A stretch of DNA of 64,000 bases from positions 1,568,001 through 1,632,000 of the forward strand of contig CM000153.2 in NCBI GenBank assembly GCA_000004695.1. The letters run 5' to 3'. The notes beneath the pieces are model-generated. The model was not told the DNA's origin. It made no database searches and was given only the letters and a program-made list of their open reading frames with translations. Source of the stretch: Dictyostelium discoideum. Its lineage: Eukaryota. Positions within the stretch are counted from its first letter, which is position 1, and each line of letters opens with the position of its first letter. Below are positions 3,599 through 24,573 of this stretch, piece by piece. A program made the translations under genes and the position numbers.

Positions 3599-4487
3599 TA
3601 TAGAAATATAGAATTATTAGAATCTATATCAAAAAAAAAAAATAAAAAATAAAAAATAAAAAAAAAAAAAAGAATTTGAATTTTAGTAATAACACAAATA
3701 ATTTCCTTTTTCTATTCCTATTATTATTTTTATTTTATTAGAACCAATTTGATACAATTGATTTTTCAGATAATGAAATTAGCAAAGTTGAAAATTTTCC
3801 AAAATTAGAAAGAGTGAAAACTTTATTATTTAATAATAATCATATTAAAAGTTTTGAAGAAGATTTTGGAAGTAGTCTTCCTCATTTAAGAGCATTGATT
3901 CTTAGTAATAATAGAATAAATAATTTATCAGATCTCGAACCATTAACAAAATTATCAGAAATCAAGTTTATTAGTTTACTTGAAAATCCAGTTTCAAAGA
4001 AACCAAATTATCGTTTATATTTAATACATTTAGTACCTCATTTAAAAATTATAGATTTTAGAAAAGTTAAGAAAATAGTAAGTATTTATTATTTTATTTT
4101 ATTTTTATTTTATTTATTTTTTCAAAAAATTAAATATCCAAAATAATTAGTTACTAATAAAAAAAAAAAAAAAAAAAAAAAATTATACAATTAACTAAAA
4201 TAATTAAGGAAAGGGAAGAATCAAAAAAATTATTTGGTCAATCAAAATTAATTTTGGAAAAATATAGTACAGATAAAAATAAAGATAAATCAAAGACATT
4301 TGAACCTGGTGAAGGTGTGAATAATAATAGTAGTAATAATAATAATAATAATAACAAAATATCCTCAACTCCAGTTAAGAAACTCACTGAAGAAGAAAAG
4401 AAATCGATTAGATTACAAATTGATAATGCGAAAACTATGGAAGAAATTAATATTTTAGAAGCTAAATTAAGAACTGGTGACATCTAA
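3395..4487 (+). CDS. U2 snRNP A' (SNRPA1/Lea1 ortholog), leucine-rich-repeat protein
   Basis: Three exons: 3395..3514, 3742..4077, 4209..4487. Donors are GTAATT at 3515 and GTAAGT at 4078. Acceptors are the AG at 3740-3741 and the AG at 4207-4208. The spliced product MRLTAELILKSPDYINPCKDRELNLRGNKISSIENLGATK|NQFDTIDFSDNEISKVENFPKLERVKTLLFNNNHIK... aligns colinearly with human U2A' (LTAELIEQAAQYTNAVRDRELDLRGYKIPVIENLGATLDQFDAIDFSDNEI...). It has the C-terminal LRR cap (ENPVSKKPNYRLYLIHLVPHLKIIDFRKV). Confidence 0.85.
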
Positions 4488-9742: not shown

Positions 9743-9778
<36 letters not shown>

Positions 9779-9980
9779 CAAACCTTTAAAAAATTGATTG
9801 TTTATTTTTATTTTTTTTTTTTTATTTTTATTATTCTCTATTATTTTTATTTATTTTTTAAAATTTATTTATTTATTTTTTTATATACCAAGAATAAAAT
9901 TATTTTGAATCTCGTGTGTTTATTTTTTTTTTTTTTTTTATTTTATTTTATTTTTTATGAGGTTGGATTGAGAGAGAAAG

Positions 9981-10019
<39 letters not shown>

Positions 10020-10860
10020 ATTATCAACCCGTGATAACAATAATAATCAAATGGTGAAAAAAAAAAAAAAAAAAAAAGTTAAAACAAAAAAAAAAATCAC
10101 AAAAAAAAAAAAATAAAAAACAAAATAATTTAAAAAAAAAAAATTAAAAATCTTGTGTTGTCTTGTTGGTTTGGAAAAACCATTTTATTTTGGAACCAAA
10201 AAAAAAAAAAAATGGTTTGTCCATAGTCCACCAAATTTTTTTTAAAAAATTTTTTAAAAAAAAAAAAGAACATGAAGAGGCGAAATTAAAAACAAAAAAA
10301 GACTGTGAATAAATATCTGACAATTTTAAAAAGAAAAAAAATTTGTTCCTTTAGCTGTTTTTTTTTTTTTTTTTATTTTTTAATTTCAAAAATAAAAATT
10401 GATTTTATGATGAAACATACCTTTTATGACCGGGCTTAGCAAAGAAATTTTTTTTTTTTTACTTTTCTATCGCGTGATTGAAAAATAAAAAAAAAAAAAA
10501 TTATAAAATGTAATTTGACCAAAAAAAAAAAAAAAAATAATTAAAAAAAAAAAAAAAAAGAAAACTTTATTTGAAAAGAACAAATTATTGTAATTGATGA
10601 TTATGATATTGATTTAAAATTATTATATTATTATTTTTTTACTTTATTTTTTTTTATTTTTATTTTTATATTTATTTTTTTATTTTTTTTTTTATTTATT
10701 TTTATTTTTATTTTTGTTTTTTTTTAAAATATTCCAAAGGTTGATTATTATTATTATTGGCAAATTTTATTTTTTTTTATGTTGGTTTTGGAGTTGAGTC
10801 AATTGTGCAATATTATTATTTTCAACCTGAGGTAAAATTATTGTTATTATTATTGTTGGG

Positions 10861-20498: not shown

Positions 20499-20542
<44 letters not shown>

Positions 20543-20670
20543 CATGTCGGGGGGAGGGTAATATATTTTAATTATTTTTTATTGAATGAATGCCGGGGAG
20601 AGTCATATATTTTAATTATATTACTATTTGTTTTTTAAAATCATGTCGGGGAGAGTCATATATTTAAAAC
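20543..20670. repeat. Three dispersed or tandem copies (about 50-bp period) of a 30-bp unit catgtcgggg(g)agag(g)tcatatattt(t)aa
   Basis: Copies at 20543..20575, 20590..20619 and 20642..20670. They are GC-rich cores in poly(T) flanks, about 450-550 bp from the 3' side of the tRNA-Ser gene. Confidence 0.6.
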
Positions 20671-20714: not shown

Positions 20715-20759
<45 letters not shown>

Positions 20760-20761
<2 letters not shown>

Positions 20762-21100
20762 TGGATTAACAAGATTGATATATGTCCATCTGTGTTAATA
20801 CGAGTTTTTATTTAATATTTATTTATAGGCTTATCATTTAAGCTGAAGGGTTATTTTAATCATATGAATTGATCAAAAGATATAATATTTGGGAGAGATG
20901 ATTCTGGAATACAATAGTAATTAGCTGTAGGGTATTTCTTCTGCAAAGGCAGTTTTGATGAGGGCGTCCACTATTCCTGCCTTTTCTCTTGGAATTCTTA
21001 CTCTTCCTGTGAGGACGTGGTAGTCTCTACTGGAGGTGATGAAGGTTCCCAATTTAAAATCATTCCTGTCACCTGTCTACGACTGCAAATCGAGGTCATT
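20760..21100. mobile_element. GC-richer non-coding island (about 340 bp) directly abutting the 3' end of tRNA-Ser; candidate relic of a tRNA-gene-targeted retroelement or solo LTR
   Basis: GC content is far above the flanking intergenic DNA and no long ORF survives in any frame. It starts right after the tRNA pol III terminator. Dictyostelium TRE3-type non-LTR elements insert about 100 bp downstream of tRNA genes. The family was not identified. Confidence 0.3.
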
Positions 21101-21108
21101 AAAAAGAT

Positions 21109-21190
21109 CGACATCGGCAGGGTTCGAACCTGCGCCTCCTAGGAGATTTGATTTCAAGTCAAACGCGTTAGACCACTTCGCTACGATGTC
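21109..21190 (-). tRNA. tRNA-Ser (anticodon UGA), 82 nt, with a long variable arm
   Basis: Reverse complement: GACATCG TA GCGA AGTGGTCTAA CGCG TTTGA CTTGAAA TCAAA TCTCCTAGGAGGCGC AGGTT CGAACCC TGCCGATGTC G. It has a 7-bp acceptor stem, a D-loop with GG, an anticodon loop cT-TGA-Aa, a class-II variable arm (CUCCUAGGAGG), a T-loop GGTTCGAAC and a T5 terminator just 3'. The two overlapping ORF-track entries (21036..21224 +, 21077..21295 -) are artefacts. Confidence 0.85.
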
Positions 21191-21222
21191 TTTGATGAAA
21201 TTTGAAATAAATAGAAAAATTT

Positions 21223-21284
21223 GATGGAAATTATTTAAACCCAATTCAAAAAAAAAAAAAAAAAAAAGATGGAAATTATTTAAA
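21223..21284 (+). mobile_element. 17-bp direct duplication (gatggaaattatttaaa) flanking 'cccaattc' plus A20; looks like the target-site duplication (TSD) of an extremely 5'-truncated poly(A) retroelement 33-95 bp upstream of the tRNA
   Basis: Copy 1 is at 21223..21239 and copy 2 at 21268..21284, with cccaattc plus 20 A between them. Position and head-to-head orientation relative to the tRNA 5' end fit TRE5-type elements, which insert about 50 bp upstream of tRNA genes. A simple slippage duplication is the alternative. Confidence 0.35.
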
Positions 21285-21375: not shown

Positions 21376-24009
21376 TTATTTTTGTTTTAGTTCCAATTTT
21401 TTGATTTCCCTTTTTAAATTGGCCAACTCTGACTGTAATGAATATAATTGATTAAAATCATTTTTTTTCTTTTCAAATTGGTTTGTTAGCTTTAAATATT
21501 CAATAGCTTGAATTAAAAACTCTTGGTTAAATAAACCACCATCATTTAATTGAAGTGTTTGTTGTTGTTGCAGTTGTTTTTGTTGTTGTTGTGGTTGTTG
21601 ATTATTTTTTTTCTTTATAGTGTTACAAAAATTTGAAATCATATCACCACCCATTTTATGTAATTGAAATTTTGATTTAATCCTTTTTTTACATTTTGAA
21701 GCCATTGAAGCAATTTTCTTTGGATTCTTAATTAATTGTTTTAAAACTTGTACAAATTTATTGGTGAATTCCAAAGGGTCAATATCATTACCGCCACCAA
21801 TATCAGTAATATCAACCAAGAAACCACAATCAGATGTAACCAATTCACTTTGACCACCAACATTACTACCAACAGGTACTAAACCAATTGACATTGATTC
21901 ATAGAAAATCATAGAAACACCTTCGAATTGACTTGGCAAGAAAACTATATCACATGCAGAGATAATTGATTTCATATCTTGAGTTGGTACATCACCTAAT
22001 AATTTAATTACATCTGATAATCCATTCTGCTTAACATATAATTCAACCTTACTTTTCAAATAACCATCACCAACAAATAAAACTTTAAATAATTGATTTT
22101 GATTTTGATTTTGATTTTGATTTTGATTTTGATTTTGATTTTGATTTTGATTTTGATTTTGATTTTGATTTTCAAAATCATTTAATAATGATTCTTTTAA
22201 TTCTTTAATAATTTCACAAGCTTCTAATGGTTTTTTTTGATTGGTTAATCTTGCAGCATACAATATAACAATCTCTTTATCTGTTATATCATATGATTTT
22301 CTAATTTCATGTCTACTTGATTCACTCTTTTTAAATTCATCCATATCAACGTTTATATAGGTAACCAATATCTTATTTTCATCAATGATTTGATTACTCT
22401 TGGCCAACATCCAATTCTTTAAATGATTTGAAGAAACTAAATGTAAATCTATAAACTGACTCATTCCAATTGATTGTCTTGGATGGCCACCATTTCTCCA
22501 ATATTCTTCTTCCATATGATTATAATCGACTATTATTAAATTGTCTTTGTTATATTTATTTGATTTTATAAATGGTAATAAATAATAACCAAATTCACTA
22601 TTTGAAATGAATAAAACATCGATATTTCTTGAATCAATTAAATAATTTATAAATGAAGGATAAGATGAATATGGTAGAAACTTTTCATTGAATAAGAAAA
22701 TGTCAGGTGTATAAAGTTGAAACCTTGATAACCATTTATTATCAGATTCAATTGTGGTTACAATTGTAATTTCCCAACCTTTTTCAACCAATTGTTTACA
22801 AAGATTTAAATTGAATTTATCAGCACCACCAGTATTTAACCATGGTAATATTAATAAAATTCTTGGTGTTGATGATTTCTTTATTAATGGATTCTTAATT
22901 TCATTACAACTACCACCACTACCACCACTACTACCACCAATAAAATTAAAATTAATTTTAAAACTATCTTCATTTTCATTTCTAATTGGATTTGGGAAAC
23001 TTTTATATTGATTATCATTACCACCACCACCACCACCAATGTTATATAATTTTGAATATTTTAATTTTAAATCATTTAAAAACTTTTCTCTCTTTGAAGT
23101 TAATGTATTTTTCCAATTCTTTTCCATAGTTTTCTTATCTTTTCTTCTATACCATTCTAATATTTCTGGTATGGTTTCACCCCAATATCCAGCTGATGCA
23201 CATTTTAAATGAAAATCCCAATCTTCCATTCCATCTCTAATATTTGAATCATATTGAAATTCTAATAATTCTTTTGGATAATGAAAGTATTCACCATCAC
23301 CATCACTACCACCATAACTATAATCATCAACTTGAAAAGATTGATTTATTTGTAATTTATTACCAAACATTGAACGTTTATACATTATTGAAATTGTAAC
23401 TTGATTTTCTATTAAGAATTTATCAGCTTGTTCAAAACCTTTTAACCAAATATATTGAGTATGACCAAAGCCAACTAAATAACCTTTAGTGAATTGAATA
23501 TGAGAGGATGTATTTAATTTCCAAACCATTTTCTCTAATGCTGTTGGTTCTAAAATATCATCAGAATCGAAAAAGAATATATAATCTCCACGAGAATTGT
23601 AAACTCCAATATTCCTTGAATGAGGTAACCCTAAATTGAATGGATTAACAATTACTCTAAATCTAATTGGTTCACGTTTCAACCATTCTCTATATGATTT
23701 TATTGATTTATCATTGGTTGATCCATCATCAATTAATATAACTTCAATCAATTTAAATGATTGTCTAATTAATATACTCTCCATACATTCATTAAATTGT
23801 TGAGGATCTGTATTTAAAAATGGTACAATAACTGATACTATTGGTTTATTCCAATTAACAACTCTTTCTTCATAATTACTTGAATAATTAAAATTTATAA
23901 CTCTATTCTTTGATATTGGTGTACATGAATAATCTGGTGAATTTAAATCAAAACTACATTTTTCATCATCATCATCTTCTTCTTCCTCTTTTTTTTCTTC
24001 TCCTTCTCC

Positions 24010-24042
<33 letters not shown>

Positions 24043-24343
24043 TAAAAAATTTATACAATATTGATTTATAATATCATTTTTATTATTTATTATTTTATTA
24101 TTTGTATAATTATAAATTTTATTATTAATTGAAAAAGTTATTATTATATAAAATAAAAATAAAATAAAGAATAATGATAGAATTATTATTATTAAATTTT
24201 TAAAATTTTTTTTTTGTAAAATAATATTTTTAATTTTTTTAAATTTATTATTATTTATAATAGATAATTTTGAAATAAAATTTTTATTATTATAATTATT
24301 TTTATTTGTAATTTTATTATTTTTAATATTTTTAATATCATTA

Positions 24344-24422
<79 letters not shown>

Positions 24423-24573
24423 TATTATTATTATTATTATTATAATTTATTTTTTTATTTCCTCTTCTTTCTATTGATTGAAAATCTTTGAATAATAAAT
24501 TTTCTTCATCTTCATCCTCATCTTCATCATTATCACTTTCATAATTATTACTATTATTATTATTCAATGACAT
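21376..24573 (-). CDS. Membrane-anchored bifunctional glycosyltransferase: an N-terminal GT2 (GT-A) domain fused to a C-terminal GT4 (GT-B) domain
   Basis: 1065-aa single ORF. It has an N-terminal TM helix (LIIIILSLFFILFLFYIIITFSI). The GT2 signature is VSVIVPFLN...IDDGSTND...FFDSDD (DxD). The GT4 signature is RILLILPWLNTGGADKF...ILYAARLTNQKKP...FEGVSMIFYESMSIGLVPV (E-x7-E). A (GATTTT)n tract at 22095..22172 encodes the (NQ)n linker. Confidence 0.75.
22095..22172 (-). repeat. (GATTTT)13 hexanucleotide microsatellite encoding (Asn-Gln)n inside the glycosyltransferase gene
   Basis: Thirteen exact tandem copies on the plus strand. They translate as NQNQNQ... on the minus coding strand. Confidence 0.9.

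Follow-up and report, generated by a model that had tools for sequence, protein, structure and literature searches.

The window analyzed here is a 64,000-nucleotide stretch of Dictyostelium discoideum DNA that is about 80% A+T and contains poly-N/poly-Q ORFs and many A-runs. ARAGORN detects only one tRNA gene in the whole 64 kb, a tRNA-Ser(UGA) gene on the minus strand. The initial annotation had named this gene, and the call is borne out by ARAGORN and Rfam, which agree on its limits and its strand (Table 1). The B box of the gene (ggttcgaaccc) is intact in sequence, in keeping with the functional, TFIIIC/TFIIIB-dependent B box found in targets of TRE5-A. The gene is the RNA polymerase III target that directs integration of TRE5-A (formerly DRE), a D. 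discoideum non-LTR retrotransposon that serves as a model for how such elements survive in a gene-dense haploid genome by landing beside tRNA genes.

The neighboring gene is a 1065-aa glycosyltransferase ORF (21376-24573, minus strand), and its best relatives are proteins of D. discoideum, D. cf. discoideum, D. citrinum, and D. firmibasis. Orthologous loci were obtained through this gene from D. discoideum assemblies (L001, L006), D. cf. discoideum (L002, L003), D. citrinum (L004), and D. firmibasis (L005). In all six of them a tRNA-Ser gene lies beside the glycosyltransferase gene, and the 82-nt tRNA-Ser sequence is identical in L001, L002, L003, and L006. The nearest assemblies show about 3% mismatches to the window in the neighboring coding sequence. 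Three additional loci (L007-L009) were fetched via proteins matching the ORF2 piece of the retroelement that is present at the orthologous loci.

As summarized in Table 1, the spacer between the two genes contains two copies of a 17-mer, with a short stub and a run of adenines between them. The insertion sits 92 bp past the stop codon of the glycosyltransferase gene. The 17-mer, GATGGAAATTATTTAAA, is found in the 64 kb only at these two positions, even with two mismatches allowed, and the distance from the start of one copy to the start of the other is 45. What was first reported of it, namely a 17-bp repeat occurring twice, 45 bp apart and starting 33 bp from the tRNA 5′ end, is correct in the sequence on every count. 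The sequence likewise confirms that the copies are separated solely by the 8-nt stub CCCAATTC (21240-21247) and A20. The inserted segment is 28 bases long and consists of one extra C, seven C-module bases, and A20. The distal copy of the duplication abuts the poly(A), as expected where a nick in the bottom strand primed reverse transcription. The unduplicated spacer on the other side, next to the tRNA gene, is the region said to be covered by TFIIIB.

Table 1. Features of the insertion locus upstream of the tRNA-Ser(UGA) gene. Positions are those of the window; L001 to L009 are the related loci described in the text.
Feature	Position	Strand	Evidence or remark
tRNA-Ser(UGA) gene	21109..21190	minus	ARAGORN; Rfam tRNA, 64.8 bits, E 3e-13
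Unduplicated 32-nt spacer, from the tRNA 5′ end (21190) to the duplication	21191..21222		Sequence; ~75% identical to L003, L001, L006
Target-site duplication, tRNA-proximal copy (GATGGAAATTATTTAAA)	21223..21239	+	Spans -33 to -49 from the tRNA
Extra C at the 5′ junction	21240	+	Comparison with C-module ends, which have T
CCAATTC, final 7 nt of the C-module of TRE5-A (3′ UTR terminus)	21241..21247	+	Exact match to the L002, L007, L008, L009 ends
Pure A20 tail, distal to the tRNA	21248..21267	+	Sequence
Target-site duplication, distal copy (GATGGAAATTATTTAAA)	21268..21284	+	17/17 identical to the proximal copy; directly after the poly(A)

This arrangement closely resembles that of a TRE5-A insertion. 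TRE5-A integrates upstream of the mature tRNA coding sequence, at a distance of ~47±3 bp (range 44-54) (PMC5391098, PMC5911963), and the 5′ junction of the stub falls in this range, 49 nt upstream of tRNA +1. The orientation of TRE5-A is strict, in that the element’s 5′ end points to that of the tRNA gene, with the two in opposite transcriptional orientation (PMC5391098). The same holds at this locus, where the tRNA gene is on the minus strand and the stub with its A20 on the plus strand, the poly(A) lying on the distal side. Target-site duplications (TSDs) of 10-16 bp are reported from tagged elements (PMC9012585); the perfect 17-bp duplication of the window is 1 bp above these values and is in line with the variable TSD length of TRE5-A.

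TRE5-A copies at the related loci serve as controls for this geometry. At the orthologous tRNA-Ser gene of L001, a TRE5-A has the TSD aaaaaaaattcgcg at -35..-48, almost coinciding with the -33..-49 occupied by the duplication in the window. In L007, the junction of a TRE5-A beside a tRNA-Arg gene lies at -45, with a TSD of 9-14 nt, and the head-to-head arrangement is found both there and in L008, beside a tRNA-Glu gene. With its junction at 49 nt and its distal A20, the stub locus is like these control loci, and the TRE5-type geometry initially proposed for it (about 50 bp upstream, 5′ end facing the tRNA, poly(A) distal) is upheld. The body of TRE5-A (A/B modules, ORF1, ORF2 with its APE-RT-ZF domains, and the full C-module with its stem-loop) is absent, with no more than 8 nt separating the TSD from the poly(A).

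No TRE sequence was found in the window outside the stub locus. Since the window contains no C-module-like sequence elsewhere, the C-module consensus was taken from other Dictyostelium assemblies. In L001, L002, and L006, a TRE5-A of their own, head-to-head with the tRNA and different from the window stub, enlarges the spacer that separates gene and tRNA. Read in the orientation of the tRNA, this retroelement starts with T(n)-GAATTGGATAACGCAATTG and continues with a ~290-bp block with an ORF1-type start (MKISNN...), poly(T), and the C-terminal coding sequence of ORF2. The ORF2 piece matches proteins of D. discoideum AX4 and other assemblies that bear the UniRef name ‘Reverse transcriptase z...’. 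Given the published architecture of TRE5-A, AB-ORF1/ORF2-BC (PMC3159450), the C-B-ORF2 order of the retroelement is as expected for the reverse complement of TRE5-A.

Four independent TRE5-A copies terminate in ...GCGTTATCCAATTC(A)9-16. Their sense-strand 3′ ends read ...caattgcgttatCCAATTC-A13 in L002, ...CCAATTC-A13 in L007, ...CCAATTC-A10 in L008, and ...CCAATTC-A15 in L009. L001 and L006, which share one common and older copy, end in ...CCAATT-A16 and ...CCAATCC-A9, respectively. B-module and ORF2 sequences adjoin the recovered ends. The last 54 nt of the C-module are predicted to fold at 22 °C into a multi-stem structure of -16 kcal/mol, in agreement with the published description (PMC3159450). 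Siol et al. (2011; PMC3159450) mutated the C-module at four positions numbered from its 3′ end (T15C, C26A, A35C, and C38A). When numbering starts from the final C, T15, C26, A35, and C38 are all present in L002, L007, and L009, and the four published positions (4/4) fit at a single one of the 13 offsets tried. On the strength of this unique fit, the recovered ends are the published C-module, with the final C as the last templated base. The TRE5-A C-module thus has CCAATTC(A)n as its 3′ terminus.

The C-module ends recovered from these loci include unusual forms. In the TRE5-A copy of L008 at 3600-3670, the B-module runs straight into the final ~19 nt of the C-module; this copy does not have the published essential stem-loop and still ends in CCAATTC-A10. 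L009 contains a variant C-module end, ...GCGTTATTCCATTC(A)7, at 4385-4410.

The last seven of the eight stub bases are the C-module terminus, set directly against the poly(A). Over these 7 comparable nucleotides, the insertion ends as TRE5-A does, in the C-module terminus followed by oligo(A). Among 802 runs of at least eight adenines in all the sequences analyzed, CCAATTC directly precedes the run in five cases, which are the four true C-module ends and the stub. The probability of this 7-mer from base composition is 2.8e-5, and it is observed in the window at ~1.2e-4 per position; the match is unlikely to be fortuitous. It had been anticipated that a retroelement 3′ end would be found to terminate in cccaattc(A)n. 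This stands for the last seven bases, which match four TRE5-A ends, but not for the eighth, which is C in the stub and T in TRE5-A. Untemplated nucleotides are frequent at the 5′ junctions of TRE5-A (PMC5391098), and the extra C at 21240 is probably such an addition. Going by the matching bases, the stub would derive from TRE5-A.1 or the non-autonomous TRE5-A.2, possibly from TRE5-C, a choice among which 7 bases do not discriminate.

We consider the structure to be a dead-on-arrival, extremely 5′-truncated TRE5-A insertion made by target-primed reverse transcription (TPRT), with a probability of roughly 85%. The initial annotation had likewise proposed an aborted TPRT event of a TRE5-type element, and the proposal is supported by the C-module match, the geometry, and a TSD beyond chance. 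In the mechanism that we envisage, the RNA-protein complex of TRE5-A.1 or TRE5-A.2 would be recruited to the TFIIIB/TFIIIC-bound tRNA gene. The element endonuclease would nick the tRNA-sense strand after ...TTTCCATC, and the 3′-OH at the nick would serve as primer for copying of the poly(A) tail into cDNA. Either reverse transcription would stop after 7 templated nucleotides or no more of the cDNA than these would be kept, and one base would be added at the 5′ junction. The second strand would be cut 17 bp away, and fill-in would create the duplication. The pre-insertion allele implied by TPRT would be 45 bp shorter and read ...AAAAATTT-GATGGAAATTATTTAAA-ATTAAAAAC....

Evolutionarily, the event is recent, as indicated by the perfect TSD and the pure A20. 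With no promoter, ORF, or C-module stem-loop, the stub is inert and would be the scar of a used integration site; the stem-loop is needed for retrotransposition (PMC3159450). Several features speak against this explanation of the locus. Only 7 bases are templated, the eighth is off consensus, and the TSD is 1 bp over the range of 10-16. In addition, the primer end, ...CCATC-3′, is without T’s for pairing with the poly(A) tail.

Alternatively, a longer or full TRE5-A may have inserted normally, and a later deletion by recombination or end joining may have removed nearly everything but the tail and the 8 nt before it. TRE5-A is found with internal deletions, one of them carried by TRE5-A.2 (PMC3159450), and the L008 copy, whose B-module adjoins the final ~19 nt of the C-module, is a further case in point. 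We nevertheless regard this course of events as unlikely: the breakpoint must fall within 1 nt of the boundary between TSD and element with both TSDs kept perfect, whereas 5′ truncation during TPRT, a documented hallmark (PMC5391098), gives the structure in one step. Slightly less probable again is that the TRE5 machinery copied some other polyadenylated RNA ending in ...CCAATTC, be it from TRE5-C, another TRE, or a cellular mRNA used in trans. The C-module of TRE5-C is 78% identical to that of TRE5-A (PMC3159450), the variant end GCGTTATTCCATTC(A)7 exists in L009, and close relatives cannot be separated by 7 bases. However, the sole variant end seen, TTCCATTC (L009), fits worse than the TRE5-A end. 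Ordinary mRNAs are spoken against by the finding that an actin terminator in place of the C-module abolished retrotransposition (PMC3159450).

With respect to the truncated TRE5-A insertion that we favor, the duplication was compared with other A-runs. The scan took in 407 runs of at least 12 adenines, with both strands searched in the window and in nine related loci, and sought direct repeats of at least 10 nt that start precisely where the run ends and recur no more than 60 nt upstream. Low-complexity A/T strings aside, two of the 407 runs have such a repeat: the stub locus (17 nt) and a tandem repeat in L008. For a null distribution, the left flank of each A-run in the window was paired with the right flank of every non-neighboring run. 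None of the 65,174 mismatched pairings reached 16 nt, the maximum being 15. The 17-bp duplication is far beyond chance.

Tandem Repeats Finder makes no call for the 45-bp array at the locus. With the form X(17)-Y(28)-X(17), the structure amounts to just 1.38 units, and simple tandem duplication is unlikely because it does not yield an X-Y-X form of this kind. The L008 tandem repeat (2660-2745) lies roughly 35 bp downstream of the tRNA-Glu gene and comprises ~2.5 units of 44 bp (cggttaaaaccgaaa-tacaccgcttttaggt-A13); it may have arisen by slippage or by repeated insertion, and it mimics a TSD-stub-poly(A)-TSD arrangement, so tandem repeats can imitate such a pattern. Replication slippage or duplication in A-rich intergenic DNA, with no retrotransposition, could appeal to this 44-bp mimic with its A13 and to the abundance of A-runs in a genome of about 80% A+T, but it is the least probable of the readings, given that the 1.38 units of X(17)-Y(28)-X(17) draw no Tandem Repeats Finder call, that the A20 is absent from relatives, and that the exact 7-nt C-module terminus at the A-run, the -49 position, and the orientation would all be left unexplained.

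For a truncated TRE5-A insertion, the ancestral state of the target can be approached through the diverged relatives L003 and L004 (about 10-20% diverged in the spacer). Both have a single homologue of the 17-mer (in L003, ttaaaaaaaatttgcgtc) adjoining the conserved proximal spacer, and neither poly(T), GAATTGG, nor a second 17-mer copy was found in L003 or L004. These loci are not a strict empty allele; as diverged relatives, they support a putative single-copy ancestral state of the target. A metagenome scan for the empty allele returned 0 matches.

In L001 (8160-8215) and L006 (8170-8225), the sequence tttaaaaaatttccc-T8-gaatta[a/t]aaacataaagaaacaaccc aligns with the distal TSD, poly(T), and GAATT of the window. 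This tract may be what remains of a still older C-module stub that has decayed (ATGTTATTAATTC, compared with GCGTTATCCAATTC), or the resemblance may be coincidental. Going by L001 and L006, an older T-run with GAATT could already have been at the site before the insertion seen in the window, which would count against the favored explanation. We considered whether the T8 and GAATT of these loci and the T20 and GAATTGGG of the window stem from the same ancestral event, and rejected this: the stub is ~26 vs 8 nt long, and the sequence after GAATT differs. In view of these differences in length and sequence, and of the perfect TSDs and A20 of the window, the tract and the window stub are tentatively read as independent hits on one hotspot.

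Further features are found near the orthologous tRNA-Ser genes. L001 (8215-8290) and L006 (8220-8290) contain a second minimal stub, just distal to the real TRE5-A, in which 14 nt and a short A-run lie between TSD copies aaaaaattcgcgc. Its sense strand in L006 reads GCGCTGTTCCATTC(A)6 and is identical at 12 of 14 positions to the L009 variant end GCGTTATTCCATTC(A)7; L001 and L006 are unexpectedly strongly different within this stub. In L002, a microsatellite in which (GTAAGGTTTTTT)n has about 27 units (10307-10615) starts right behind the tRNA-Ser terminator, and a different insert, of ~450 bp, lies between the TRE5-A and the tRNA gene (9760-10224). The tRNA-Ser gene of D. firmibasis (L005, 9020-9101) is inverted relative to that of the other species beside the orthologous glycosyltransferase gene, with a T26 run about 60 nt upstream.

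Compared with known systems, the stub is like TRE5-A in target distance, head-to-head orientation, and the CCAATTC followed by oligo(A). It also shares variable TSD length and an extra base at the 5′ junction with TRE5-A, including its 5′-truncated copies and TRE-TRE tandems. It differs in having 7 templated nucleotides, no A, B, or C modules, no ORFs, and a TSD of 17 rather than 10-16 bp. The stub is a TRE5-A-derived scar and not a member able to function. TRE5-A.2 (AB-ORF1-BC) has the same C-module 3′ end and is mobilized in trans by the ORF2 protein of TRE5-A.1, which makes it an equally likely RNA donor. While copies of TRE5-A.2 are ~2.4 kb long and still mobile, the stub can be neither transcribed nor recognized.

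The closest likeness outside Dictyostelium is with human L1. In PMC3219598 (which cites Chen et al. 2005), ‘simple poly(A)/poly(T) insertions’ and severely 5′-truncated L1/Alu sequences in disease alleles are described as poly(A) with TSDs of 6-17 bp. The simple poly(A) insertions are like the stub in containing little or no element sequence, and are interpreted as TPRT that broke off nearly immediately. The resemblance is confined to the mechanism, and the enzyme would be TRE5-A ORF2 and not L1 ORF2p. In the human cases the source RNA is usually unidentifiable and the target is a loose TTTT/AA, whereas in the stub the family is named by 7 nt and the site is set by the Pol III complex.

Insertions of this kind bear on how the use of tRNA genes as targets is counted. 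In the reference genome, 98 of 405 tRNA genes are TRE5-A-associated (PMC5391098). A scar of 8 nt would escape repeat annotation based on similarity. Because such annotation can miss real integrations, estimates may be too low both for the fraction of used targets and for how often reverse transcription aborts. Marker-selected retrotransposition assays are blind to micro-stub events. The event type is well understood and the stub itself would not surprise a specialist; no description of micro-stubs in Dictyostelium was found in the literature examined. The locus also shows how tightly TRE5-A events fit into short intergenic spacers.

We tentatively suggest, at somewhat less than even odds, that micro-stubs are a regular and unannotated by-product of TRE5 activity, with a second candidate at the tRNA-Ser gene of L001 and L006. 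If this is true, many tRNA genes scored as TRE5-free, among the ~400 in all, would in fact have been hit. Scanning all tRNA genes for stubs would then give the first estimate of how frequently TPRT of TRE5-A is aborted in vivo.

The window contains further insertion-like sequences downstream of the tRNA gene. A non-AT-rich fragment of ~345 bp (20717-21100, minus strand) starts about 9 nt past the tRNA 3′ end, and a pure A40 forms its tail (20717-20756). L001 and L006 lack the fragment; the ~100 bp found at this place in them include an external-B-box-like ggttcgatcc. Homology to these loci resumes about 100 bp downstream of the tRNA, a distance typical of TRE3. The fragment looks like a 5′-truncated poly(A) retroelement with a ~100-bp target deletion. 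In an exhaustive phmmer search, a 51-aa ORF piece of the fragment matches only unnamed Dictyostelium proteins of 160-390 aa, and the matched ‘MS.YAEIAK...’ family is probably ORF1 of the element. The 51-aa peptide had no match in a word-indexed homology search, and the fragment had none by blastn or tblastx among all fetched loci. Farther downstream (20501-20670, minus strand), three copies of a atatatgactctccccgacatg-like motif are each followed by an A-rich run, and an A37 tract (20501-20537) comes after them. This array is ancestral, being conserved downstream of the same tRNA gene in L001 and L006, and could consist of old retroelement 3′ remnants.
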